Positions 6,497-63,089 of a stretch of 64,000 bases of DNA are shown in pieces. Origin of the DNA: a bacterium OM1 bin76 (GTDB lineage: Bacteria; Actinomycetota; Acidimicrobiia; Spongiisociales; ZC4RG35); assembly GCA_002238785.1 (NCBI GenBank), contig MPNA01000003.1, positions 7,368 through 71,367 of the forward strand, in the 5' to 3' direction. Below the pieces are notes generated by a model. The model was given only the letters and a program-made list of their open reading frames with translations, was not told where the DNA came from and ran no database searches. The stretch's first letter is position 1. Every line of letters starts with the position of its first letter. Position numbers and translations under genes: made by a program.

Positions 6497-7369
6497 ATGA
6501 GCAACTTTGCATCCTCCAAGAACCATGTAGAAGTCCTGGGCAAGCGCATGGCCTACACCGAGGCCGGCGAAGGTGATCCCATCGTGTTGCTGCACGGCAA
6601 CCCGACTTCCTCCTACCTGTGGCGAAAGGTCATTCCTGCGGTGGTCGGGCAAGGTCGTTGCCTGGCGCCCGACCTGATAGGCATGGGGGACTCCGACAAA
6701 CTCGACGATTCGGGTCCCGGTTCCTACCGATTCGTGGAACATCGCCGATACCTGGACGGATGGTTGGAGGCGGTGGGGGCCACCGACAACGTCACCCTGG
6801 TGGGTCACGACTGGGGCGGGGCGCTGGCCTTTGACTGGGCCAATCGTCACCGCGATGCGGTGCGAGGCTTGGTCTATATGGAGACCATCGTGTGCCCCGT
6901 TTCATGGGATGACTGGCCGGGTCCCGCCCGGGGGATATTCCAAGCGATGCGGTCGCCGGCCGGAGAGACGATCGTCATCGAAAAGAACGTCTTCGTAGAG
7001 AGGATCCTCCCGGCTTCGGTGCTTGATCCTCTTTCGGAGGAGGTCATGAGCGAGTATCGCCGACCCTACGTGGAAGGTGGGGAGACCCGCCGCCCCACCC
7101 TCACCTGGCCCAGGGAGATCCCCATTGACGGCGACCCTGCGGACGTGGCCGAGATAGCAGCAGCCTATGGGAAGTGGCTGGCGGAAAGCGATGTTCCCAA
7201 GTTGTTCATCAACGCCAAGCCCGGAACCATCCTGATCGGCAAGCAGCGGGAGATCTGCCGCTCCTGGCCCAACCAGACCGAGAAAACCGTGCGGGGAACC
7301 CATTTCATCCAAGAGGATTCCGGAGAACGGATCGGAGCCTACATCGCCGACTGGATGGCCGGCATCTAG
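6497..7369 (+). CDS. haloalkane dehalogenase (DhaA-type alpha/beta hydrolase)
   Basis: NHVEVLGKRMAYTEAGEG...VLLHGNPTSSYLWRKVIPAVV...DLIGMGDSDK...GHDWGGALAFDWANRHRDAVRG aligns motif for motif with DhaA/Renilla-luciferase-like dehalogenases (HGNPTSSYLWRNI, IHDWGS). Confidence 0.8.
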   Translation: MSNFASSKNHVEVLGKRMAYTEAGEGDPIVLLHGNPTSSYLWRKVIPAVVGQGRCLAPDLIGMGDSDKLDDSGPGSYRFVEHRRYLDGWLEAVGATDNVTLVGHDWGGALAFDWANRHRDAVRGLVYMETIVCPVSWDDWPGPARGIFQAMRSPAGETIVIEKNVFVERILPASVLDPLSEEVMSEYRRPYVEGGETRRPTLTWPREIPIDGDPADVAEIAAAYGKWLAESDVPKLFINAKPGTILIGKQREICRSWPNQTEKTVRGTHFIQEDSGERIGAYIADWMAGI

Positions 7370-24984: not shown

Positions 24985-27219
24985 TCATTCGGAGGGCATC
25001 CTGAACGGCTGGGGATCCAGGAAACGGTTGAGAACGTTACGACTCACCGCTGCCACATTGTTGTCATACCGGGCGTGGCTGAGACTTCCCGACCAAGCGA
25101 TCGATCCCACCGAGAACACCGCCCCGCCTCCGGGGCTCTCGTAGAACACCATGTCGGCCCGGATACGGTCGGGGTCATCGGGGTTGGTGGGAGGCAGGGA
25201 ATCTACCAGGGAGGTGACCATCAGGTCATAGAGGTTGGAATGGCCCTCCGAGGAGGCCAGTACCAGGGCATGGCGAGGGGTGCCCATGAGAGCGTCGGCC
25301 CGGTCGATCTCGTATCCGGCCGCCCCTCCCATCAGCAACCCGAAGTCGCCGATGAGTTCGTCGTCGACGCCTTGGAAGATGAATGCCGCCCGCTCGTCGT
25401 TGGAGGCCACAGTGCGCCGGTAATAGGAGCACTCGTCAAACCCCTGCGTGATGAAACCCACCCCCAAGAAAGTCTGGGGAGGACGGCCCGCCCAAGACCA
25501 GGTACCCGCCCGCTCACCAGAAAACGACAGATGCCCCTGACTGACATCGGCCGCCCACAACCGGGGAGCATCGGGCCGTCGGACCTCCACAATACCTGAT
25601 CGAGTCGGGTGATAGCCGATCCGCCAGTACCAACCGTTGCCGCCCAGGTACATCATCCGCCCTCCCTGTCTCACATGCTCCTCGGTGGCGTCGAACATCT
25701 CCGTGCTGGTGTACTCGGGATGGGAACTGGAGATGACCACCCGGTATGGCTCCAGGGCCGCCAGGCCTTCCCGGTGCACATCCTCGTCGGTGATCACGTC
25801 AAAGTCATATCCGTCCTCCTCCAGCCACGAGACCAGCAACAGGTCCTGGCAGAACTTGTAGATGCGGCCCTTGGGACGGAAGTTGGTGACCGGGCGGCGC
25901 ATCGAGGAGTAGACCACCGTACTGCCGTCGGTATGGCTGTCGTAGGTGGAGCCACCGATCTCGGGGAACCGCAGCATCAGAAGATCCGTGTCGTCCAGCA
26001 CCGTGAGCCGCCCATGGATCAACTCGTTCCAAGGAAAGACCACCCGCAGACGGAGATTGGCGTAAGCCCCGTAGGTGGCGGTGGACAGCAACAGAACCAC
26101 GTCGGATTCCTTGCCGGATGCGGCTCGCACCACGAATGGAACGTAGAACTCGGCGTCATCTGCCCGCAGGCGGGCGGCATAGCACCCGCTCCTCCAATCG
26201 TCGGGGACGACGAGCGTGAAAGTGGTGCACCAACGGGCGTCATCCACATCGTCGTCGTGGAAGTGGATGGCGCCGTACTGTTCGGTTCCTTGCTGCCAGT
26301 TGTCCGTCTGTCCGGCCCAATTGGAGCCGCCCACCGCCCGGGAGGGGAGGTTGACAGTCTCTCCGTGGCGACCGTTGCCCGACACGTCAGTCACCGACTC
26401 GGTGTCAATTCCGATCGAAAAGTCCCAATCGGCAAATGCGTCCTCCACGGCGGTAGGCCCGGCCACTGCGGATAACGCACCGATGTCTTCTCGGTCTAGT
26501 GTCCGTGCGTAAACCCGGGGCCGCTCGATCCTGCCGTTAAAGCATGCATCGGTGTGCTCCACGCCCCGGTCGTCCACTGCGCGAGCGGCGCCGATGTAGA
26601 GGTTCCCGCTCCCCGTTGAACCGGGTGCCGCCTCTTCCAACCTCTCCCGCGAGGAAAGCTCCACTTCCAAGCGCTGCCGTTCCAGTCCGGCGGCGTGAAA
26701 TTCCACGGTGCCCGTGCCTGGTTCATAGGTGACCGCCACTGCCGTCCAGCGATGCTCGATCACGCTGATGGAACTGGTCACAATGGCGGTGGAATCCCCC
26801 CTCCCCACGGCCAGCGCCAGCGCTCCGTCTTCCAGAATCAGACTTACACCCGAGTCGTCGGTAGCACAGTAGGTACCCACGATGCCCTGCCTACCGGCAG
26901 ACAACAGGGTAGGAAAGACATTGGCGCTCAAGGTGATTCCCTTCCTCAACGGAAGGCCATCGGAAAGCGGAACCCGCACCGCCGAGCCTGGATGGATGGG
27001 CTGCCACTCGGTGGGGTAGTCACTGCAGACTGGGGTATCCAGTTCGATCTCCTTGAAATCGGGGCAGTCGTCTCCCAGACCCACCTCCGGAGCGATGAGT
27101 CGCACGATGTCGACCCGATAGGTCTGCGGCCCCACGCTGCTCACCTTGAACTCGATAGGCTCACCCGGCCGGACGCTTTGCCGGTCGGCATATCCCATGA
27201 CAGCCGCCTTGACGTTCAC
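24985..27219 (-). CDS. N,N-dimethylformamidase large (beta) subunit-like protein
   Basis: 744 aa with an N-terminal LamG/concanavalin-like region and a large C-terminal domain (…SSSHPEYTSTEMFD…GGNGWYWRIGY…). The size and organisation match the DMFase beta-subunit family, but the assignment is from memory, not from a search. Confidence 0.45.
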   Translation of the reverse strand: MNVKAAVMGYADRQSVRPGEPIEFKVSSVGPQTYRVDIVRLIAPEVGLGDDCPDFKEIELDTPVCSDYPTEWQPIHPGSAVRVPLSDGLPLRKGITLSANVFPTLLSAGRQGIVGTYCATDDSGVSLILEDGALALAVGRGDSTAIVTSSISVIEHRWTAVAVTYEPGTGTVEFHAAGLERQRLEVELSSRERLEEAAPGSTGSGNLYIGAARAVDDRGVEHTDACFNGRIERPRVYARTLDREDIGALSAVAGPTAVEDAFADWDFSIGIDTESVTDVSGNGRHGETVNLPSRAVGGSNWAGQTDNWQQGTEQYGAIHFHDDDVDDARWCTTFTLVVPDDWRSGCYAARLRADDAEFYVPFVVRAASGKESDVVLLLSTATYGAYANLRLRVVFPWNELIHGRLTVLDDTDLLMLRFPEIGGSTYDSHTDGSTVVYSSMRRPVTNFRPKGRIYKFCQDLLLVSWLEEDGYDFDVITDEDVHREGLAALEPYRVVISSSHPEYTSTEMFDATEEHVRQGGRMMYLGGNGWYWRIGYHPTRSGIVEVRRPDAPRLWAADVSQGHLSFSGERAGTWSWAGRPPQTFLGVGFITQGFDECSYYRRTVASNDERAAFIFQGVDDELIGDFGLLMGGAAGYEIDRADALMGTPRHALVLASSEGHSNLYDLMVTSLVDSLPPTNPDDPDRIRADMVFYESPGGGAVFSVGSIAWSGSLSHARYDNNVAAVSRNVLNRFLDPQPFRMPSE

Positions 27220-27554
27220 GCTTCCGCTCCGGGGTCGGCGCCGAACATCTCCTCCCAGCGGCGCCGGAAGACAAAAAACTCCGCGTCTTCGATCGATGTG
27301 AAGACATGTTCAGGCAGTGTCTCGGTATTCAGCGGGAAGGTGTCGCTAAAGCGGGCCAGCGTCCATTCCGAGTGAGGGCCGGTCAACTTCAGGAAGTACT
27401 TTCCGGTGATGGGGCCGCCTCGCATGTAGTCCAGGAGAGCCTGCAGGTCTGGCGAATGCTTGCCGAAGGGCTGCCGGTGAAACTCCTCCCATAAGTCGAG
27501 CCGCGACCCGTCAATGCCGGCAGGGAGTCGGGGACGTTTCAAGAAGTCTGACAT
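27216..27554 (-). CDS. small hypothetical protein, candidate DMFase small (alpha) subunit
   Basis: 112-aa ORF whose stop overlaps the start of the large-subunit-like gene (ATGA coupling). No family recognised; the assignment rests on position and size only. Confidence 0.3.
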   Translation of the reverse strand: MSDFLKRPRLPAGIDGSRLDLWEEFHRQPFGKHSPDLQALLDYMRGGPITGKYFLKLTGPHSEWTLARFSDTFPLNTETLPEHVFTSIEDAEFFVFRRRWEEMFGADPGAEA

Positions 27555-27733
27555 GGTGTGCGTCCCCCCATCTTAAACCACATTTACGAGATCGGTCCCG
27601 GGAGAGCAAACATTTTGCAGATTTCCCTCAAAGTTTTCATGGCATAGCAGAGTGGGTTGGCTCGTCGGCTCTTATTCTGCCTTAAACAAGGTTTGTCCGA
27701 CGATTGGACATTCATTACCCCCAAGGAGCTTCT

Positions 27734-29605
27734 ATGAAGAAACTACTTACGCTATTGGCCATCCTGGCCCTGGTTGCCACAGCCTGCGGAGGTGACGACA
27801 CCTCGGCGGCTGATGCGGAGGCGGAAGCGGCCGCACGCGCCGCAGCTGAGGCACAGGCTGCCCAAGCACAGGCAGAAGCAGACGCTGCGGCAGCCGATGC
27901 CGCGGCCGCGGCCGAAGAGGCTGCGGCAGCACAGGCTGCCCTGGACGAAGCCATGGCCGAGTTGGAAGCCACCAAGATGGCCGCCGACGAAGGTGACGAG
28001 GCGGCGCAGGCAGCGTTGGCGGAGGCAGAGGCGAAGGCGGCCGATGCGGAGGCTATGGCAGCCGAAGCCGAAGAAGCAGCGGCCATGGCCCAGCAGGAAC
28101 TGGACGAGGCTGCTATGGCCATGGAAGAGGAAATGTCCCTCCATGGCGGAACCCTGGTCATCGCCCAACCAGGCGACCCGACGGGTCTGCATCCCAACCG
28201 GTTCGGATCCACCAACGACCGCAACATCATCACCAACATGTATGACACGCTGGTGGAGTTCGACCTGAACACCTACGAGATCGTGCCGTCGCTGGCCACG
28301 GATTGGAGCGTGTCCGAGGACGGCCTCACCTGGACCTTCAACCTCCGGGAAGGCGTATCCTTCCACGATGGCTCCCCGTTCGGCGCCGAAGACGTGGTGA
28401 CATCCATGTCCCGGGCGCAGGAACCCGAATCGGGACGCACCGCCTCGCTTCTGACCCGCGTGTCAGAAACTGTGGCGACCGGTGACCTGACCGTGGAGAT
28501 CCGTCTCAGCGAGCCCGACCGCATCCTGGCCAGCACCCTGGTGGATGTGTACATCTCGCCGAGGGATCCCGACATCGATCTGAACGAGACGCCGATCGGC
28601 ACCGGTCCCTTCAAGTTCGTGGAGTGGGAGCGGAACCAGCAGGTGGAAATCGTGCGCAACGATGACTTCTGGATGGAAGGCCTGCCCTACCTGGACGGAA
28701 TCATCTACACCACGGTCCCCGACGGCACGGTGCAGTCGCTGCAGATCCGCACCGGCGAGGTCGACATGCTCGCCTCGACACCTTTGGGAGACATTGGTGT
28801 GTTGCAAAGCGCCGGTGTGCAGATTCTCGGCCCGGCTGCGGGCTTCAACTCGGGGCTCTATCACTTCCATGTGAATACCCGTCGCGACCCGTGGTCGAAC
28901 CCGTTGGTCCGAAAAGCTGTCAGCATGGCCCTGGACCGCCAGGCCTTGCAGCGCAGTTTGTTCGGCTTCATGCAGATACTCTCCAACCCGATGGAAGCCA
29001 ATCCCGCCTTCTTCAACCCGGATGCAGCTTCCTACAACACGCCTGACTTGGAAGGCGCCAAGGCCCTGATGGCCGAGGCCGGCTATCCCGACGGGTTCGA
29101 CGGTGGAGAGATGATCAACTGCAGCCTGGGCTTCCAGTTCGATACCCTCGCTCAGGGAGTTCAGAGCCAGTTGCAGAACCTCGGCATCGAGGTGTCTCTC
29201 AACCTCATGGATGTGGGCACCTACGTGAACCGGACGCTGATTGCCTTCACCCAGGACCCGGACAACTTCGGCAACTTTGACCTGGCACTTTGCGCCATGG
29301 TTCCCAAGCCGGACGAGTACGACCTGATGAACCATCCCTACAACAAGCTTTTCACCGAGACAATGGGATGGATCGACACCAGGCCCGAGTTCTTCGAATT
29401 GCTGACCAATGCCCGGTCCATCGCCTCCGACGAGGAATACACCGAAGCGATGCACCAGTTGCAGATGTGGGCTATGGAGGAACAGCCCCAGATCGTGATC
29501 GGTGGACGGGTGACACCCATTGCGGCGGCCGGCAACGTCCACGGCTTCATCGCCCATACCCAGGGACATCTGTTCCTCACCAATGTCTATAAGACAGACG
29601 GCTAG
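27734..29605 (+). CDS. ABC transporter substrate-binding lipoprotein, family 5 (peptide/nickel/Opp type), copy 1, with ~110-aa Ala/Glu-rich linker
   Basis: MKKLLTLLAILALVATACGG (lipobox), then an A/E low-complexity stretch, then an SBP_bac_5-like domain (TLVIAQPGDPTGLHPNRFGS...YDTLVEF...). AAGGAG ribosome-binding site 5 nt upstream of the ATG. Confidence 0.8.
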   Translation: MKKLLTLLAILALVATACGGDDTSAADAEAEAAARAAAEAQAAQAQAEADAAAADAAAAAEEAAAAQAALDEAMAELEATKMAADEGDEAAQAALAEAEAKAADAEAMAAEAEEAAAMAQQELDEAAMAMEEEMSLHGGTLVIAQPGDPTGLHPNRFGSTNDRNIITNMYDTLVEFDLNTYEIVPSLATDWSVSEDGLTWTFNLREGVSFHDGSPFGAEDVVTSMSRAQEPESGRTASLLTRVSETVATGDLTVEIRLSEPDRILASTLVDVYISPRDPDIDLNETPIGTGPFKFVEWERNQQVEIVRNDDFWMEGLPYLDGIIYTTVPDGTVQSLQIRTGEVDMLASTPLGDIGVLQSAGVQILGPAAGFNSGLYHFHVNTRRDPWSNPLVRKAVSMALDRQALQRSLFGFMQILSNPMEANPAFFNPDAASYNTPDLEGAKALMAEAGYPDGFDGGEMINCSLGFQFDTLAQGVQSQLQNLGIEVSLNLMDVGTYVNRTLIAFTQDPDNFGNFDLALCAMVPKPDEYDLMNHPYNKLFTETMGWIDTRPEFFELLTNARSIASDEEYTEAMHQLQMWAMEEQPQIVIGGRVTPIAAAGNVHGFIAHTQGHLFLTNVYKTDG

Positions 29606-29622
29606 GTCCCGCTAGAGAAACC

Positions 29623-29662
29623 GAGGAGAGAGGAGACGCGTTACAGGGTTCCCTCTCTCCTC
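29623..29662 (+). terminator. stem-loop downstream of SBP copy 1 (GAGGAGAGAGG ... CCTCTCTCCTC), putative intrinsic terminator without U-tract
   Basis: Perfect 11-bp inverted repeat read from the sequence. Confidence 0.35.
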
Positions 29663-29782
29663 CCACACCTTCGTTATAAATTCGCCTCTTTTCTGGAAGC
29701 ATGACCTACACATCGGTTATTCTGACTCCTAGAGGTTTAATGACAGTATGACTAAATGCCCGATGACAAAGGAGCGATCCAG

Positions 29783-31663
29783 ATGAAGAAATTACTCGCA
29801 CTGCTCGCCATTCTGGCCTTGGTTGCAACGGCCTGTGGAGAGGACACCTCGGAAGCTGAGGCCGCAGCCGAAGCCGCGGCCGCAGCCCGCGCCGCCGCCG
29901 AAGCACAGGCAGCCGAAGCCGAAGCGGCAGCCGAAGCAGCCGAAGCCGAAGCCGAAGCCGCGGCCGCGGAAGCTGCCGAAGCGCAGGCTGCCCTGGATGA
30001 GGCCATGGCGGAACTGGAAGACACCAAGATGGCCGCCGAAGAAGGGGACGAAGCAGCCATGGAAGCATTGGCTGAGGCCGAAGCGAAGGCAGCCGAAGCC
30101 GAAGCAATGGCAGCCGAAGCCGAAGCAATGGTAGCCGAAGCCGAGGCGGCAGCCGCCGCGGCCGAGATGGAGTTGGAAGAGGCCACCATGGCGATGGAAG
30201 AGGAGATACCTGTCGGTGGGACTCTCGTCATCGCCCAAAGCGCCGATCCCACTGGTCTTCATCCGAATCGCTACGGATCGACGGCCTCCCGTAACGTCGT
30301 CACCAACATCTATGACACCCTGGTTGAGTTCAACCTGAACACCTATGAGATTGTGCCTTCGCTGGCCACTTCGTGGACCGTCTCAGAAGACGGTCTGTCG
30401 CATGTCTTCAATATTCGTCCAGACGTGATCTTTCACGACGGCTCGGATCTGGACGCCGTTGACGTTGTTCGCTCAATCGAACGCGCGCAGGAGCCTGGAT
30501 CTGGAAGGACAGCTTCCTTGCTGACTCGGGTCGCTGAAGTCGAAGCGATTGACGACCTCACCGTGGAGGTTCGGCTCTCAGAGCCGGATCGCATATTACA
30601 CAGCACGCTGATCGACGTGTATATATCGCCTTCTGAGGACATCGACTTGAACCAGACGCCTACTGGCACCGGCCCGTACAGGTTCGTCTCCTGGGAGAGA
30701 AATCAGCGGGTTGTCATAGAGCGCAACCCCGACTTCTGGGGCGACGCTTACCTGGACAGGATCGAGTACGTCACCGTTCCTGATTTCAGCGTCCAGTCGT
30801 TGCAGCTTCGCTCCGGCGAGGTCCACATGCTGGCCCAGGGTCCGTTGGCCGAGTTGGCAACCCTCAGCGAGGCGGGCATGGTACTCGCCAGTCCAACAGG
30901 GAACACCGGCCTGTATCACTTCCACGTCAACACCCGCCGGGACATCTGGTCGAATCCGTTGGTGCGCCAGGCGACCAGCATGGCGATTGATCGCCCTGCG
31001 CTACAACGAACCCTGCTGGGCCACATGCAGATTCTTTCCAACCCCATGGAGAGCAACGCGCAGTTCTTCAACCCGGACGCGGCCTCATACAACGCTCCTG
31101 ATGTCGACGGAGCGAAGGCCCTTCTCGAGAGTGCGGGGTATCCCGACGGCTTCGACGGCGGGGAAATGATAGTCTGCGATACGGACGACGAACACACCTG
31201 GCTGGCCCAGGCCGTTCAGGAGCAACTGAGATCCAGCTTGAACATCAACATCGAGCTGAACATCATGGATGTGGCAACCTATGTGAACAGAACGCTCCCC
31301 ACCCACACGAGCGACCCTGACCAGCTTGGCCTGTACGACTTGGCCGCGTGCGCAATGGTGCCCAAGCCGGACGAGTACGACTTGCTGAATCATCCCTACA
31401 ACAAACTCTTCGTTGAGACCATGGGATGGATCGACCACAAGCCCGAGTTCTTCGAACTGCTGGCCAGTGCCCGATCCATCGCTTCCAACATTGAGTACAA
31501 GGAAGCCATACACCAGTTGCAGTTGTGGGCCATGGAGGAACAACCCCAGATCGTCCTCGGAGGGCGAATGAACCCCATACCCCACAGTCCCAACGTCCAA
31601 GGCTTCATCTCGCATACTCAAGGGACCCTTTACCTCACCGATGTCTACCTGACAGGGGGCTAA
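29783..31663 (+). CDS. ABC transporter substrate-binding lipoprotein, family 5, copy 2 (tandem paralog) with Ala/Glu-rich linker
   Basis: MKKLLALLAILALVATACGE, an A/E-rich linker, and an SBP domain roughly 70-75% identical by eye to copy 1. Confidence 0.8.
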   Translation: MKKLLALLAILALVATACGEDTSEAEAAAEAAAAARAAAEAQAAEAEAAAEAAEAEAEAAAAEAAEAQAALDEAMAELEDTKMAAEEGDEAAMEALAEAEAKAAEAEAMAAEAEAMVAEAEAAAAAAEMELEEATMAMEEEIPVGGTLVIAQSADPTGLHPNRYGSTASRNVVTNIYDTLVEFNLNTYEIVPSLATSWTVSEDGLSHVFNIRPDVIFHDGSDLDAVDVVRSIERAQEPGSGRTASLLTRVAEVEAIDDLTVEVRLSEPDRILHSTLIDVYISPSEDIDLNQTPTGTGPYRFVSWERNQRVVIERNPDFWGDAYLDRIEYVTVPDFSVQSLQLRSGEVHMLAQGPLAELATLSEAGMVLASPTGNTGLYHFHVNTRRDIWSNPLVRQATSMAIDRPALQRTLLGHMQILSNPMESNAQFFNPDAASYNAPDVDGAKALLESAGYPDGFDGGEMIVCDTDDEHTWLAQAVQEQLRSSLNINIELNIMDVATYVNRTLPTHTSDPDQLGLYDLAACAMVPKPDEYDLLNHPYNKLFVETMGWIDHKPEFFELLASARSIASNIEYKEAIHQLQLWAMEEQPQIVLGGRMNPIPHSPNVQGFISHTQGTLYLTDVYLTGG

Positions 31664-31685
31664 GTCCCGCTAAAGGCAAACTCAG

Positions 31686-31722
31686 GAAGGAGGGGACGTT
31701 CTCCCAGCGTCCCCTCCTCTCC
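31686..31722 (+). terminator. stem-loop downstream of SBP copy 2 (GGAAGGAGGGGACG ... CGTCCCCTCCTCTCC)
   Basis: Near-perfect inverted repeat. Its 3-prime flank (GTCCCGCTA.AG...) is shared with copy 1. Confidence 0.35.
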
Positions 31723-31762
31723 TCCCGCCCAAACGTCGCCCAGCAAAGTATCTTCTATCTCG

Positions 31763-32759
31763 ATGCCAATTCCGTTGCTAACCGTCGAAAACCTTTCGGT
31801 CCGGTTCAAGACCCCTGATCAGGTGATCAATGCCGTCAATGGCGTGAGTTTCTCCCTCAACACCGGGGAGACCCTCGGAATAGTCGGCGAGTCCGGATCC
31901 GGCAAGACGGTGACGGTGCTGAGCATCCTGGGGCTCATCCCCAAACCCCCCGGGGAGATTGCCGGTCGAAGGGCAGGACTTGCTGCCCCTGTCCACGGAA
32001 GCGCTCCGCTCGATCCGGGGACAGGAGATCTCCATGGTGTTCCAGGATCCCATGACCTCGCTGAACCCGGTTATCAAGGTGGGGGAGCAACTGCGGGAAG
32101 CTCTGTGGACCCACAATCCTTCCGATTCCAAGTCCAATCACCGCCGGCGCGGCATCGAGTTGCTGGACATGGTGGGGATCCCGCAACCGGAACGGCGCTA
32201 CAACCAGTTTCCCCACGAGTATTCCGGCGGAATGCGCCAGCGCGCCATGATCGCCATGGCCATGGCCAACCGGCCCAAGCTGCTGATCGCCGACGAACCC
32301 ACCACGGCGCTGGACGTGACCATCCAGGCGCAGGTGATCGAGACCCTCAAGGCAGCCCGCGAGGAGACGGGGGCGGCTTCCATCCTCATCACCCACGACC
32401 TGGGTCTGGTCTCCCAGATTGCCGACCGGGTTATTGTGATGTACGCTGGCCGGATCGTGGAGGAGGGCCGCATCGGCGACATCTTCTCCCGGCCACGGCA
32501 TCCCTACACGATCGGACTGCTGGCTTCCATTCCTTCGATCACTCAAAGGAGGACGAAACTCTACTCCATTCCCGGCCAGCCTCCGGACATGGCCAACGTA
32601 CCCCCGGGCTGCCCCTTCCATCCCCGGTGCGCCGTTGGAGGGGAGCGTTCGGTCTGCCGATCCGACTCTCCTCGGCTGCTGGAGGTGGGATCCGCACAGC
32701 AGGCAGCCTGTCACTTCACCGAGGAGGCGGCATCCTGGTTCACCGAGAGAGCAACATGA
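31763..32759 (+). CDS. oligopeptide/dipeptide ABC transporter ATP-binding protein (OppD/DppD-like), frameshifted near 31960
   Basis: The N-terminus [15 protein letters not shown]...[12 protein letters not shown]...[10 protein letters not shown] is in one frame. It continues in another frame (from 31959) as [10 protein letters not shown]...[14 protein letters not shown]...LSGG-like...HPYT. A few nucleotides appear to be missing between EIAG and VEGQ. Confidence 0.7.
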
Positions 32760-33762
32760 ACACCGACGCCGCCCAGAAGCCGATCCTCGATATCCGGGAT
32801 ATCACCACCAGTTACCACATCCGCCGCAGCGGCGCCCAGAAGGCCACCAGCCTGGTGGCGGTGGAGAACGTCACCCTGTCCATCAAACCCGGTGAGACTC
32901 TGGGCCTGGTGGGAGAGTCGGGGTGCGGCAAGTCCACCCTGGGGAGGACCATCATCCGACTGCTGGAGCCCTCGGCGGGAACGGTCAGCTTTGCGGGACA
33001 GGACATCACCCACTGCGACCACCGACAGATGCGTCCCCTGCGCCAGGAGATGCAGATCGTCTTCCAGGATCCCTACGCCTCCCTCAATCCCCGGTTCAAA
33101 GTCCAACAGATCCTGTACGAGCCCTTCCGTATCCATGGCATCCCCCGGGCGGTGGCCAGCCAAAAGATTCCGGAACTGCTCTCCCTGGTTCAGTTGCCAC
33201 CCGACTCCCTGCGCCGGTTCCCCCACGAGTTCTCCGGCGGCCAGCGACAGCGGATCGCTATCGCCCGAGCCCTGGCCCTGGAGCCCTCTCTTCTGGTGCT
33301 GGACGAACCGGTGTCGGCGCTGGACGTCTCCATCCAGGCCCAGATTCTCAACTTGCTGGAAGACCTGCAAACCGAACTCGGCCTGGCGTATCTGTTCATC
33401 GCCCACGATCTATCGGTGGTGGGCCAGGTCTCCGATCGCGTGGCGGTCATGTACCTGGGCCGCATTGTGGAAGAAGGCCCCCGGGACGCGGTCTTCAACT
33501 CCCCCCAGCATCCCTACACGATCGCCCTCCTGTCGGCGATCCCCGATATCTCCGCCGCCCAGGGTCGACAGACCCGGGAGCGGATAATTCTCACCGGCGA
33601 CCTGCCCAATCCCCTCGATCCGCCATCCGGTTGCCGGTTCAGAACCCGGTGCTGGCGAGGCGACCAACTCTGCGTCGACCAGGACCCTCAATTGGCGCCT
33701 GTCTCCGACAGCCTGGTGGCCTGCCATTACCCGGGCGGGGAAGACCACTCCGGCGCACGATC

Positions 33763-33766
<4 letters not shown>
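32756..33766 (+). CDS. oligopeptide ABC transporter ATP-binding protein (OppF/DppF-like)
   Basis: LVGESGCGKSTLGR...IVFQDPYASLNPR...FSGGQRQRIAIARAL...LVLDEPVSALD. ATGA overlap with the upstream gene. Confidence 0.8.
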
Positions 33767-34710
<944 letters not shown>

Positions 34711-34732: not shown

Positions 34733-35590
34733 ATGACATCTACCGCACAGTTCTCGGAGAGACGCAAGATCTGGAGGAGGATCGTCCACAATCCCCTTCA
34801 CCTCTTCACGCTCAGCATGGTGACGCTGCTGGTGCTGATGGCGGTGTTCGCCGATCTCGTGGCGCCTTACGGCGCAATCGAAGTGGTCGCCTATCCCTTC
34901 CAGTTGCCTACCGAACAGTTCTGGCTGGGTACCGACGAGATAGGAAGGGACATCTTCAGCCGGGTCATCCACGGGTCGCGCGTCTCGCTGTACGTGGGCT
35001 TTGCCTCCACGGCCATCGCGGTGATATTCGGGGTGCCGATGGGCGTGGTCAGCGGGTACTTCGGCAAGCTCACCGACACCATAATGATGCGCACCACCGA
35101 CGGCCTGCTGGCTTTCCCTCCCATCATCTTGGCCATGGCCATGGTGGCGGTGCTGGGAACCAACCTGCGGAACACCATCATCGCCATCGGGATAGTGCAG
35201 ATCCCCCGTTTCGCCCGTCTGGTGCGAGGAATGGCCCTCTCCCTCAAAGAGAGCGAATTCATCACCGCCGGCAGAGCCTTGGGCGCCAGTCATGTATATC
35301 TGATGCAACGGTCGCTCCTGCCCAACCTGACCTCGATCATCCTGGTGCAGTTCACTCTCACTTTCGCCACCGCGGTGCTAACCGAGGCCGCCCTCAGTTT
35401 CCTGGGTCTGGGCGCTCAGCCTCCCGCCCCGTCCTGGGGCGCCATGCTCCTCTCCGGAAAGACCCTGATCTCCACCAATCCGTACCTGGCGTTGGGAGCG
35501 GGAAGCGCCATATTCCTCACCGTGCTGATCTTCACCCTGCTGGGCGACACCCTCACCGACCTGCTCAACCCCTACCGCACCGACCGTTAA
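34733..35590 (+). CDS. ABC transporter permease (OppC/DppC-like)
   Basis: Six TM segments and an EAA motif region (ITAGRALGASHVYLMQRSLLPN). Confidence 0.8.
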   Translation: MTSTAQFSERRKIWRRIVHNPLHLFTLSMVTLLVLMAVFADLVAPYGAIEVVAYPFQLPTEQFWLGTDEIGRDIFSRVIHGSRVSLYVGFASTAIAVIFGVPMGVVSGYFGKLTDTIMMRTTDGLLAFPPIILAMAMVAVLGTNLRNTIIAIGIVQIPRFARLVRGMALSLKESEFITAGRALGASHVYLMQRSLLPNLTSIILVQFTLTFATAVLTEAALSFLGLGAQPPAPSWGAMLLSGKTLISTNPYLALGAGSAIFLTVLIFTLLGDTLTDLLNPYRTDR

Positions 35591-44114: not shown

Positions 44115-45494
44115 TCAGGCCAGCGCTTCCGTGATTCTGTTCGCCGCGTCCTGGGTCGCTTCCTCCGCAGTAGCCTCACCGGCCCACAGCAGATCCAACG
44201 CTGCCCCGGCGGCGGTGTCCACCGCGAAGCCCTTGGTCGTGAACGGAGTCCACGTTCCGGCCTCGACCATGGCAACGGCATCCTTCTTCCACTGGACGTC
44301 GTTGAAGCCGGCAATCTCCAGGGAACTGCGCCGAGTCGGTGTGGCAACCTGGCTCCATATTTCAAGACCCCTGGTGTCCGTGATGGTCTTGGTGAAGGCC
44401 CACGCAGCTTCGGGATTCTCTGACTGGGAAGAAATCGAGATGGTTCCCAACTCGAGTTTTCCAGCCCTAACGCCGTTGAAACTGGGAAGAGCCGTCACGT
44501 CATAGTCGAAATCGACCGTTCCCGCCAGGGCGCCATACCACCATGGGCCCATCAGGTACATACCGGTCTGCTGGTTGCGGAAGGCCTCCAGGTGAGTTCC
44601 TCCGGCCACCACCGGGTTGGGCGACTTGCCGTCCTCGATGAGCTTGGCGAAGTAGCCCAGCATCTGGGGACTGGCGCCCTGATGGATGGTTGGCTCAAGG
44701 GCCTCGTTGATGATGGTCCCGCCACCCATGAAGCAGAAGGTGTCGTAGTTCCACGACTCGAAGGAGACCCCGAAACGCATGCCGTTGCCGATCAGCGCGT
44801 CGATCGAATTGGTGAAGGCCTCTTCATTCCACTCGCCGTTTTGGAAGAGCACCTGAGGGTCTTCCAAGCCTGCCGCCGAGAAGGCATCGCGGTTGTAATA
44901 GATCACATAGGGCTCGGTGTTGTCGGGCATTCCGTACGCCTTGCCGTTGACCAAGGTGCCCTCGACCGTGGTGGGAATGAAGTCACCCATGTCAAGCTCT
45001 TCAGCGTCCCGTGCGATGTAATCGTCGATTTGCAGGAGTGCTTCGCCTTCCGCGGTCAGCTGAGTCAACTGGAAGTTGAGCATCCGCATCACGTCCGGCG
45101 CGTTACCTGCCGCAAACCTGGCCAGCAGTTGCGGGTACTCCTCGTAACCGTTGGCGGCCAGCGGCTCCCAGTTGACTTGGACATTCGGATACTTGGTGTT
45201 GAAGTAGTCAATGCGCTGCTGGATTACCTCACCTTCCAAGCCGGCGCCCCAGGCCCAGAGCGTGATCTCGCCACCGATGTCGTCGGAATCGGGTGCGGCC
45301 GTGGTCGTAGGTGCGGCCGTGGTGGGCGCAGCAGTGGTCGCCGGGGCGGCCGTCGTGTCGGCGGTGTCATCGCCGCAGGCCGCCAGGAATGCTGCCGCGG
45401 CCGCGGCCGTACCGCCGAGGCGGATGAATTCGCGTCGGGACATTCCGGCCTGCTTGGCCCGCCGGATAATGTCCATTTCCTTGGATAATCGCAT
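44115..45494 (-). CDS. sugar ABC transporter substrate-binding lipoprotein (CUT1 family, Tat-type signal)
   Basis: MSRREFIRLGGTAAAAAAFLAACGDD (RR motif plus lipobox), a TTAAPTTAAP linker, and an SBP_bac_1-like body. Confidence 0.8.
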   Translation of the reverse strand: MRLSKEMDIIRRAKQAGMSRREFIRLGGTAAAAAAFLAACGDDTADTTAAPATTAAPTTAAPTTTAAPDSDDIGGEITLWAWGAGLEGEVIQQRIDYFNTKYPNVQVNWEPLAANGYEEYPQLLARFAAGNAPDVMRMLNFQLTQLTAEGEALLQIDDYIARDAEELDMGDFIPTTVEGTLVNGKAYGMPDNTEPYVIYYNRDAFSAAGLEDPQVLFQNGEWNEEAFTNSIDALIGNGMRFGVSFESWNYDTFCFMGGGTIINEALEPTIHQGASPQMLGYFAKLIEDGKSPNPVVAGGTHLEAFRNQQTGMYLMGPWWYGALAGTVDFDYDVTALPSFNGVRAGKLELGTISISSQSENPEAAWAFTKTITDTRGLEIWSQVATPTRRSSLEIAGFNDVQWKKDAVAMVEAGTWTPFTTKGFAVDTAAGAALDLLWAGEATAEEATQDAANRITEALA

Positions 45495-62006: not shown

Positions 62007-63089
62007 ATGCCACGCAAACTGATAGTCGGAATCGCAGTCATTGCCTTATTGTTGGCAGCCTGCGGAGACGACGAGGAACAGGCTCCAGCCACCACCGCGG
62101 CCCCGGCGACCACGGCCGCCGCGGTGGAAGAAGCACCGGAGGAAGTCGCAGAGGAAGAGGAGCCTGAAGAGTCCAGCGGTGCTTACGACGCTGTGATCCG
62201 CCCGGCTGAGCAGCGTTGGAAGATCGGGTATGGCGATGGCCTTTCCGGTATTCCGTTCACCGACAGCGTGACCGACAACATCAACGCCATCGCCGAAGAG
62301 ATGGGCGTGGACATTGTCTACTGCGATAACGCCTACGACCAGGAAAAGACCGTGGAGTGCTCCAACCTGCTGGTCACCCAGGAAGTTGACGGAGTGATCT
62401 TCGCCAACTGGATCGCCGGTACCGAAGAACTGATCGCCGGTATCTTCCACGATGCTGGTATCCCGTGCGTCTCCTACGACGGACCCCACCCCGGATGCGT
62501 GGCGTTCGGCCCCGACAACTATGAGGCCGGCGTGGCCGCCGGTCAATACCTGGCCGCCTTCGCCCAAGAACAGGGTTGGGCACCAGAGGACACCGAACTG
62601 TTGTTGGTCTGGACACCGGACGTGCCCGTCCACAAGGCACGCGCCGACGGCGCCACCGACGGCGTGCGGGAATCGTTCGCCATTCCCGACGAGAACATCC
62701 ACGACATCCCCACCGAGGGACTGACCGACACGCTGCCCAACGTCACCACCTGGGCCACCGCCAACCCCAACGCCAAGCACGTGCTCTGCTTCGGACACAG
62801 CGACCAACCCGGCGTGGACTGCGCGCTCGCCCTGGAACAGAGCGGCTACCTGGGACACGCCGCCGCCGTCGGCACCGGAGCCTCCACCGAGGCATTGGTG
62901 GACCTGCGTCAGCGCTCCGATGAAGAATCGGTGTTCAAAGCCACCATCTCCTACTTCCCCGAGCGCTACGGCACCTACCTGGTCCCCGCCATCGTGGACC
63001 TGATCGAAGGAAACACCGTTCCCGAACGGCTCATTCCTTCCGTTTTCCCGGTAACCCGAGACAACGTCTTCGACCTTTACCCGGGGTAG
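62007..63089 (+). CDS. sugar ABC transporter substrate-binding lipoprotein (periplasmic-binding-protein type I, RbsB-like)
   Basis: MPRKLIVGIAVIALLLAACGDDEE (lipobox) plus an Ala/Thr/Pro linker and a PBP1 body. Confidence 0.7.
   Translation: MPRKLIVGIAVIALLLAACGDDEEQAPATTAAPATTAAAVEEAPEEVAEEEEPEESSGAYDAVIRPAEQRWKIGYGDGLSGIPFTDSVTDNINAIAEEMGVDIVYCDNAYDQEKTVECSNLLVTQEVDGVIFANWIAGTEELIAGIFHDAGIPCVSYDGPHPGCVAFGPDNYEAGVAAGQYLAAFAQEQGWAPEDTELLLVWTPDVPVHKARADGATDGVRESFAIPDENIHDIPTEGLTDTLPNVTTWATANPNAKHVLCFGHSDQPGVDCALALEQSGYLGHAAAVGTGASTEALVDLRQRSDEESVFKATISYFPERYGTYLVPAIVDLIEGNTVPERLIPSVFPVTRDNVFDLYPG

Follow-up and report, generated by a model that had tools for sequence, protein, structure and literature searches.

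Two tandem family-5 solute-binding lipoproteins of an acidimicrobial bacterium carry a conserved, length-variable Ala/Glu-rich linker, possibly a helical hairpin tether

RESULTS

Two adjacent binding-protein genes

We analyzed a stretch of 64 000 nucleotides (positions 7368 to 71 367 of contig MPNA01000003.1, assembly GCA_002238785.1) from bacterium OM1 bin76, an actinobacterium of the class Acidimicrobiia; this whole stretch is called 'the window' below, and positions are counted from its first letter. Our subject is a pair of adjacent open reading frames (ORFs) on the + strand, gene 1 at 27734-29605 (623 aa) and gene 2 at 29783-31663 (626 aa), each coding for a solute-binding protein (SBP) of family 5 in which a long Ala/Glu-rich linker separates an N-terminal Cys from the binding domain (the body). 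An earlier reading of this DNA, made from its letters alone (the sequence-only reading), had proposed two adjacent family-5 SBP lipoproteins with long, strongly helical linkers of this kind; Pfam matches, leaders and AlphaFold2 (AF2) models agree with that description. The parts of the two genes are as follows:

27734-27787 (+): gene 1 signal peptide and lipobox (MKKLLTLLAILALVATAC, Cys18); sequence, regex scan
27788-28144 (+): gene 1 Ala/Glu linker; composition, AF2
27800-27985 (+): gene 1 predicted N-arm helix, residues 23-84; AF2
27986-27997 (+): gene 1 predicted hairpin turn Asp85-Glu-Gly87-Asp88, in the middle of the core AQAALDEAMAELEATKMAADEGDEAAQAALAEAEA; AF2 helix break, conservation
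27998-28135 (+): gene 1 predicted C-arm helix, residues 89-134; AF2
28145-29605 (+): gene 1 SBP_bac_5 domain and stop; Pfam, Foldseek
29783-29836 (+): gene 2 signal peptide and lipobox (MKKLLALLAILALVATAC); sequence, regex scan
29837-30214 (+): gene 2 Ala/Glu linker, with the turn EEGDE at 30038-30052; composition, heptad register
30077-30144 (+): 21-bp tandem repeat GCCGAAGCAATGGCAGCCGAA (AEAMAAE, one heptad) in the gene 2 linker; Tandem Repeats Finder: 3.2 copies, 93% match, score 115
30215-31663 (+): gene 2 SBP_bac_5 domain and stop; Pfam, 68% identity to gene 1

A Shine-Dalgarno-like GGAG lies 5' of both genes. Their bodies, which begin with GGTLVIAQ, match Pfam SBP_bac_5 (PF00496) over residues ∼182-525 with E-values of 1e-80 (gene 1) and 2e-75 (gene 2); the scores for the two SBPs are 272 and 254 bits against a gathering cut-off of 32.4. 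The full-length AF2 model of gene 1, built on a 72-sequence alignment, had a mean predicted local distance difference test score (pLDDT) of 90.4 and a predicted template modelling score (pTM) of 0.77, with pLDDT mostly >90 in the body. A Foldseek search of the PDB with this model returned the cluster C SBPs 5u4o, DppA, NikA, AgaA and GbpA at E ∼1e-38, the best match being 5u4o of B. anthracis (E 3e-38, TM-score by the target 0.89). NCBIfam equivalogs gave at best 136 bits for GsiB and 126 bits for NikA, far under their cut-offs of ∼600. The binding domains are ordinary family-5 (cluster C) SBPs.

The N-terminus of both proteins reads MKKLL..LALVATAC, i.e. a basic n-region, a hydrophobic core and a lipobox-type Cys18. 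The leader MKKLLTLLAILALVATAC matches a PROSITE-PS51257-like lipobox pattern, with Ala rather than Leu at position -3, and the Cys with its hydrophobic leader is kept in every linker-bearing homologue; judged by leader type, both SBPs should be lipoproteins.

The sequence-only reading had named an assembly artefact as a possible origin of the linker. We saw that the 623-aa protein of gene 1 is present, exact, on 14 contigs of independent ENA, JGI and NCBI assemblies, and that positions 27000-32591 of the window are base-identical to two contigs (L001 and L002) save for one 14-bp indel outside the SBP genes. As the linker recurs unchanged in independent assemblies, it is not an artefact.

The two paralogues share 68% identity across 561 aligned residues; they are homologous as had been stated, at a level slightly lower than the ∼70-75% first given. 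Their bodies have pI values of 4.0-4.5, and the exported proteome is acidic as a whole.

Composition and predicted fold of the linker

The linker that follows Cys18 is 119 residues long in gene 1 (residues 19-137) and 126 in gene 2 (residues 19-144). It consists of 48% Ala, with Asp and Glu adding 27% (gene 1) and 31% (gene 2) and Lys and Arg only 3% and 2%; the net charge is -29 and -36, respectively. Pro, Thr, Ser and Gly together make up ∼6% of these linkers versus 34-79% of those in short-linker orthologues.

In the full-length AF2 model of gene 1 the linker forms two helices, residues 23-84 and 89-134, with a break at Asp85-Glu-Gly-Asp88; helix is predicted for ∼108 of the 116 residues between 19 and 134. 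Mean pLDDT per block of 10 residues starts at 57 (residues 21-30), rises to 93, and lies at 75-93 across residues 41-130. A model of the gene 1 linker alone, made with 17 orthologous linkers, again has two helices (5-68 and 72-121), with pLDDT 89.7 overall and >90 for most of the linker, and pTM 0.70. Foldseek superposed the linker model on antiparallel hairpins (MacA 4dk0, the receptor-binding domain of colicin E3/E9, FliJ, SipB/IpaB and 5los) over 83-109 aligned columns, more than either helix alone could supply, with root-mean-square deviation 1.2-2.7 Å and TM-score by the query (TMq) 0.60-0.69. The linker is thus predicted, by these models, to be a two-helix antiparallel hairpin and not a single rod.

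An alpha-helix rises by 1.5 Å per residue; at this rise the predicted hairpin would have a paired stalk of ∼7 nm and an N-arm overhang of ∼16 residues (∼2-3 nm), and the body would stay within a few nm of the anchor, not at 15 nm. The sequence-only reading had taken the linker for a single alpha-helical spacer that holds the domain ∼15 nm from the membrane. This part was not supported: the Gly-Asp-Glu break, the two AF2 helices and the superposition on hairpins all speak against it, and a content of 2-3% Lys+Arg excludes a single alpha-helix of the Glu/Lys type.

A Pfam scan of the linker at E ≤10 gave nothing meaningful; nor did a sequence-profile search of the PDB with the linker, where the best match, an Lpp-56 variant (1jcc), had a non-significant E of 1.3.

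Conservation, heptads and selection

Among 17 orthologues with a body identity of only ∼70%, the Gly, Asp and Glu of the turn never vary, and ∼20 residues on each side of it (AQAALDEAMAELExTKMAAEEGDEAAMEALAEAEA) are nearly invariant across the same set. Over 61 linkers from several divergent subfamilies, the central Gly sits at 0.52 ± 0.08 of linker length; the turn motifs of the divergent subfamilies include AMEGDEAAQAAL, AEAEGAVDPE and ATAEGNVEAM. The few large hydrophobic residues gather beside the turn, with L77 and M82 on one arm and L95 on the other.

Heptad periodicity was seen in both linkers. The 7/3 harmonic has p 0.005 for Asp/Glu and p 0.006 for Ala in gene 1, and p <0.001 for each of the two in gene 2, where the C-arm can be read directly as heptads (AEAEAKA/AEAEAMA/AEAEAMV/AEAEAAA), for which the 21-bp tandem repeat codes; the period-7 term of Asp/Glu is significant in gene 2 only. 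A 3.5-residue periodicity of large hydrophobic residues in the linker was not significant. Ala at recurring core positions resembles packing of the Alacoil type.

In the linker core, 46 codons compared between gene 1 and gene 2 comprise 23 identical, 18 synonymous and 5 non-synonymous pairs; a body block of 140 codons has 47, 58 and 35, respectively. The core is therefore under purifying selection, with amino-acid constraint at least equal to that of the body. Gene conversion was considered as a source of the likeness of the two cores and was ruled out, because 18 of the 46 codons differ synonymously. By these sequence comparisons, the linker looks like a selected coiled-coil-like module and not filler.

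Codon repeats and linker length

The sequence-only reading had expected codon repeats to let the linker vary in length. Such repeats are clear in gene 2, which has the 21-bp unit, a substrate for slippage, and a second repeat with a 33-bp unit at 29852-29966; gene 1, for which repeats had also been claimed, has weak repeats of 6-12 bp only. The expected variation itself was found, and it is confined to the linker.

In four clusters of sequences (identity ≥90%) the bodies, of 486, 484, 483 and 482 aa, are equal within one residue and 95-100% identical, and essentially all length differences fall in the linker. The linker of P0296 is shorter by 21 residues with a body 100% identical; that of P0284 is longer by 30 residues, a perfect tandem duplication, with a body 99% identical. 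P0271 (-14) and P0273 (-7) have lost residues in the C-arm, and P0263 lacks 24 linker residues. Indels of the C-arm come in heptad units (7 or 14 residues), those of the N-arm are less regular, and gene 2 orthologues differ by 7- and 14-residue indels right at 30077-30144. Linker length ranges over 89-139 residues across the orthologue group and over 106-173 in distant family-5 subfamilies. Collapse of repeats during short-read assembly could account for some of the length variants; several, however, sit on megabase long-read contigs.

Since the linkers are made of GCN/GAR codons, spurious long ORFs run across them in other frames on both strands (27715-28366 and 29706-30262). The following are examples of these by-products of codon usage, which are not genes:

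27715-28272 (-): spurious ORF across the gene 1 linker
27774-28268 (+): spurious ORF across the gene 1 linker
29752-30252 (-): spurious ORF across the gene 2 linker
29823-30134 (+): spurious ORF across the gene 2 linker

Distribution and portability of the module

Family-5 orthologues with 60-73% body identity, some of them named Ilumatobacteraceae, have linkers of 21-63 aa rich in Thr, Ser, Pro and Asp, or plain signal peptides. Family-5 SBPs at only ∼30% body identity bear the same kind of Ala/Glu linker.

The linker was also found outside family 5. An SBP of the Bmp/PnrA family (PF02608) is 69% identical to the family-5 SBP P0115 over its first 103 residues, that is leader and linker, and the bodies are unrelated. 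Of the best 120 Bmp orthologues (ENA, NCBI, JGI), eight have a hairpin-type linker of 118-135 aa with a AEAEGAVDPEVVAELEAQLEAAR turn; orthologues with bodies 91-97% identical have linkers of 30-55 aa without the turn, and more distant ones have linkers rich in Pro, Thr, Glu and Met. From contigs of matching length among the hits, some genomes seem to combine family-5 SBPs on Ala/Glu linkers with a Bmp protein on a Pro/Thr linker.

The Bmp case came to light through the phmmer match P0122. Searches with the linker itself were of little reach: phmmer with the linker alone against 5.8 billion proteins gave two marginal matches, as low-complexity words and bias correction lost even true orthologues, and a linker profile run against 1.84 billion representatives gave three matches only. 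The family breadth of the module was accordingly inferred from body-anchored searches, linker searches being too insensitive.

The window itself holds two more SBPs. An SBP_bac_1 (sugar) lipoprotein at 44115-45476 (-), with a Tat-like leader, and a Peripla_BP_4 lipoprotein at 62007-63089 (+) each have a tether of ∼35-45 residues rich in Thr, Pro and Ala (and Glu). The sugar SBP had already been cited from sequence as having a Pro/Thr-type tether, next to which the Ala/Glu linker was called atypical; this holds, and the Peripla_BP_4 lipoprotein behaves likewise. As both of these SBPs are Thr/Pro-tethered, the Ala/Glu module is gene-specific, not genome-wide.

Taken as a sequence pattern, the linker is a discrete portable module that has moved into and out of two or more SBP families unrelated to each other. 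It is gained, lost and exchanged quickly, and transport as such does not require it.

Two side observations concern the homologues. A distant Opp-type operon (L070, 7803-11902; ∼30% body identity) begins with two tandem family-5 SBP genes of 620 and 633 aa, and both of these SBPs have Ala/Glu linkers with a common AEAEGAVDPELMAELEG turn. The recovered Bmp SBPs (P0140-P0259; L071 10001-12200) are mostly ∼650-680 aa long, at least L071 and P0169 having two near-identical tandem Bmp domains; L071 is a 3x-coverage long-read contig with frameshifts. The hairpin-linked Bmp versions among those listed have ∼430-490 aa; they may possess one domain only or break off at the internal repeat.

Operon and neighbourhood

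The gene order is SBP1, SBP2, OppD, OppF, OppB, OppC, and gene 1 and gene 2 code for the SBPs of one Opp/Dpp-type ABC importer. The genes downstream of the SBPs are:

31763-32759 (+): OppD-like ABC ATPase, frameshifted here by a 14-bp deletion at ∼31965
32756-33766 (+): OppF-like ABC ATPase (ABC_tran and oligo_HPY)
33763-34710 (+): OppB-like permease (BPD_transp_1_N and BPD_transp_1)
34733-35590 (+): OppC-like permease (OppC_N and BPD_transp_1)

Comparison of window positions 31950-31975 with L001 and L002 showed that 14 bp (GGAAGGGCTCTCTT) are missing between two copies of the 7-bp direct repeat GAAGGGC. The oppD-like ORF from 31763 becomes nonsense after ∼65 residues, and the true frame resumes as an ORF at 31959-32759. 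The gene is intact (336 aa) in L001, L002, L072 and L073, and a 336-aa ORF is present at the matching position in L004 and L006. The loss is either genuine, a pseudogene variant made by slippage, or an error of the consensus.

Upstream and divergent (24985-27554, -) lie a large subunit with a DMFA2_C match (744 aa, E 2e-93) and a 112-aa protein annotated as DMF_alpha; by their matches, the two probably form an N,N-dimethylformamidase-like two-subunit amidase. In L072 and L073, too, the pair stands ahead of the SBP operon, and L006 has a 744-aa ORF at that position. Because the amidase pair is kept upstream of the SBP operon, there is a hint that the transporter may import an amide substrate.

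Stem-loops at the 3' ends and history of the gene pair

Each SBP gene is followed by a homologous 3' flank (GTCCCGCTARAG..AAAC..), at 29606-29680 and 31664-31735, with a stem-loop:

29623-29662 (+): stem-loop 3' of gene 1, 11-bp arms, no T-run; -27.1 kcal/mol, z -3.0
31688-31718 (+): stem-loop 3' of gene 2, 11-bp arms, 9-nt loop, no T-run; -32 kcal/mol, z -5.3

The stem sequences differ, yet they still pair in the flanks of gene 1, gene 2, L004 and L006. Scans of 27200-32000 found no match in Rfam, and no sigma-70 promoter or intrinsic terminator. Lacking a T-run, the stem-loop is less likely a classic terminator than a hairpin for processing, stabilisation or attenuation within the operon; it is a candidate for an intra-operon RNA element that sets the ratio of SBP to transporter expression.

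Nucleotide identity of gene 1 and gene 2 is 69-83%, depending on the block. Each has its own orthologue group: L006, L072 and L073 have the gene-2 type alone behind the same upstream genes, L004 has the gene-1 type alone as the operon's SBP, and in L074 the gene-1 type is located apart. A recent tandem duplication was ruled out by the 68% amino-acid identity, the separate orthologue groups and the single-copy relatives (L004, L006, L072 and L073); by this comparison the paralogues are old. The earlier idea of a duplication of whole gene plus terminator needs amending accordingly: the unit of gene and stem-loop is indeed homologous, but the copies are old, relatives are single-copy, and the stem-loop is without the T-run of a terminator.

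DISCUSSION

Favoured explanation and alternatives

We give about an even chance to the explanation that the linker is an antiparallel Ala-cored ('Alacoil-like') hairpin tether between the lipidated Cys and the binding domain of Opp-type SBPs. The module would fold as two long helices, of ∼62 and ∼46 residues, between Cys and body, with the invariant Gly-Asp-Glu turn joining them into a hairpin whose paired part measures ∼7 nm; the arms would change length by repeat slippage while purifying selection holds the core. In M. tuberculosis DppABCD, a cluster C SBP docks stably on the translocator only if it has its lipid anchor/tether and its N-terminal region (PMC10954201). A hairpin brings the chain back toward the anchor, so the body would remain within a few nm of the membrane and could dock on OppBC, which fits that need. 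The rigid or semi-rigid polyanionic hairpin might then serve as a strut or bumper that juts into the wall zone, taking the place of the usual disordered Pro/Thr-rich tether.

A number of points weigh against this explanation. The hairpin is a model prediction; AF2 monomer runs are prone to folding long coiled-coil segments back on themselves, and the linker alignment was shallow (n=17 sequences). Every Foldseek E-value of the linker model was >1, so the superposition tells how the model is shaped and does not argue for homology. Lengths of N-arm and C-arm do not covary significantly (Spearman 0.23, p 0.07; 61 linkers), some natural variants have lost 21-24 residues from the stretch of the N-arm that ought to be paired, and the subfamilies P0068, P0072 and P0083 are without the central Gly. 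With a net charge of ∼-30 and Glu at most flanking heptad positions, the helices would need counter-ions to pack. Finally, the role of strut or bumper is something we infer, and close orthologues function without the module.

The extremely helix-prone composition, with AF2 helix in nearly all of the linker, would also suit one continuous single alpha-helix of ∼110 residues, a rod of ∼16-17 nm holding the domain far out, e.g. across the cell wall; uncorrelated arm lengths and the three subfamilies without the Gly would agree with it. We consider such a rod unlikely, since the mid-linker break is invariant, both AF2 models break there, the linker model superposes on hairpins, the i/i+4 network of Glu-Lys/Arg salt bridges of known single alpha-helices is absent, and an SBP has to reach its permease at the surface of the membrane for docking (cf. 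DppABCD, PMC10954201). The helices could instead pair between molecules, making the linker an oligomerization domain that clusters SBPs at the translocator, whether as a homo- or hetero-oligomer of the two SBPs or as an Lpp-like bundle. Heptad periodicity and the Ala-rich core would be expected then; the linker core is more conserved between the paralogues than the bodies are, the second tandem pair in L070 has near-identical linkers, and the profile match to 1jcc can be added as the weakest possible hint. Still, -29 to -36 charges per chain and Glu at flanking heptad positions disfavour self-association, single-copy relatives retain the same linker, a parallel bundle leaves the conserved turn unexplained, and the AF2 monomer model is already confident as a hairpin; we hold intermolecular pairing to be improbable.

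Length polymorphism at strain level, presence or absence of the module among orthologues with >90% identical bodies, the Pro/Thr-rich linkers that substitute for it in relatives and the overall acidity of exported proteome and SBP bodies could all be read as signs of a low-complexity expansion, essentially unstructured or neutral in function, that arose through slippage at codon repeats and serves only as a generic flexible acidic tether. Such an origin is hard to reconcile with 18 synonymous versus 5 non-synonymous changes in the core, with a core nearly invariant while orthologue bodies are ∼70% identical, with heptad periodicity and indels in heptad units, or with pLDDT >90 for most of the linker, and we think it quite unlikely. 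The many Ala-x-Ala motifs of the linker, in turn, would fit a pro-segment removed after export, leaving the mature protein untethered by this region; Ala-x-Ala sites that lie tens of residues beyond the membrane-spanning h-region, as here, are not normal substrates of signal peptidase I, and all homologues with the linker have a lipobox-type Cys immediately after the hydrophobic segment. This makes removal of the linker most improbable.

Going beyond the hairpin tether as such, one might speculate, at rather long odds, that the hairpin is a portable envelope module of Acidimicrobiia-like monoderms: a rigid polyanionic strut that sets or fills the zone between membrane and wall, with a conserved tip binding some wall or surface partner and a length tuned or diversified (under pressure from phages or grazers) by heptad-unit slippage. 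If this were true, the strut would be the protein equivalent of anionic wall polymers or of the spacing achieved by Lpp.

Meaning

Tethers of lipoproteins are usually regarded as disordered strings; in the present case, a widespread lineage of uncultured actinobacteria seems to use a structured, conserved, strongly anionic helical module, which moves between unrelated binding-protein families and differs in length among strains. If the hairpin is real, its variants offer a natural series of rigid tethers of varied length for asking how tether geometry affects the docking of SBPs on ABC importers. To our knowledge, there is almost no structural information on the Acidimicrobiia envelope, and the module would give a first molecular handle on its architecture. 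In practical terms, the length of the linker repeats can serve as a marker that tells strains apart, and such repeats are known to mislead short-read assembly. The identity of the binding domains is unchanged: they are ordinary family-5 SBPs of a conventional transporter.

Comparison with known systems

The two proteins share with lipid-anchored cluster C SBPs, such as DppA of M. tuberculosis and 5u4o of B. anthracis, the SBP_bac_5 domain, the fold, the lipobox leader and an operon with two oligo_HPY ATPases and OppB/OppC permeases; those SBPs have short linkers, whereas here an acidic Ala/Glu module of 119-126 residues, predicted to be structured, stands between anchor and body.

Lipoprotein linkers have been described as intrinsically disordered, and about half of the E. 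coli outer-membrane lipoproteins have disordered N-terminal linkers (bioRxiv 10.1101/2021.01.05.425367). The Ala/Glu linker resembles such tethers, which in Actinobacteria are rich in Pro, Thr and Ser, by its position right after the lipidated Cys and its presumed task of connecting anchor and domain, and orthologues of these very SBPs use tethers of the disordered kind. It differs from them by its ∼6% of Pro, Thr, Ser and Gly, its predicted helicity (pLDDT ∼90), its conserved core motif and its heptads. In the literature searched we found no description of Ala/Glu helical tethers on SBPs; apparently, this is an undescribed variant of tether on ordinary members of a known family.

In shape, the linker model superposes on the alpha-hairpin of MacA/AcrA, the receptor-binding domain of colicin E3/E9 and FliJ, with Ala at recurring heptad positions; unlike these hairpins, to which it has no sequence relationship, it is far more acidic, has almost no large hydrophobic core and is used as a lipoprotein tether. 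As an Ala/Glu-rich helix-prone spacer it is similar to E/K(R) single alpha-helix domains and (EAAAK)n linkers; however, Lys and Arg make up roughly one third of the E/K(R) domains versus 2-3% here, and its helix is broken by a conserved turn.

With Braun's Lpp the linker has in common a lipid-anchored, Ala-rich, heptad-patterned helix in the cell envelope; a sequence relationship to Lpp was not significant in the profile search (1jcc), and the C-terminal Lys is absent. Lpp, which determines envelope spacing, is a parallel trimer of 58 residues, linked to peptidoglycan through this Lys; in the proteins described here, which belong to a monoderm lineage, the helices are followed by a binding domain of 486 residues.

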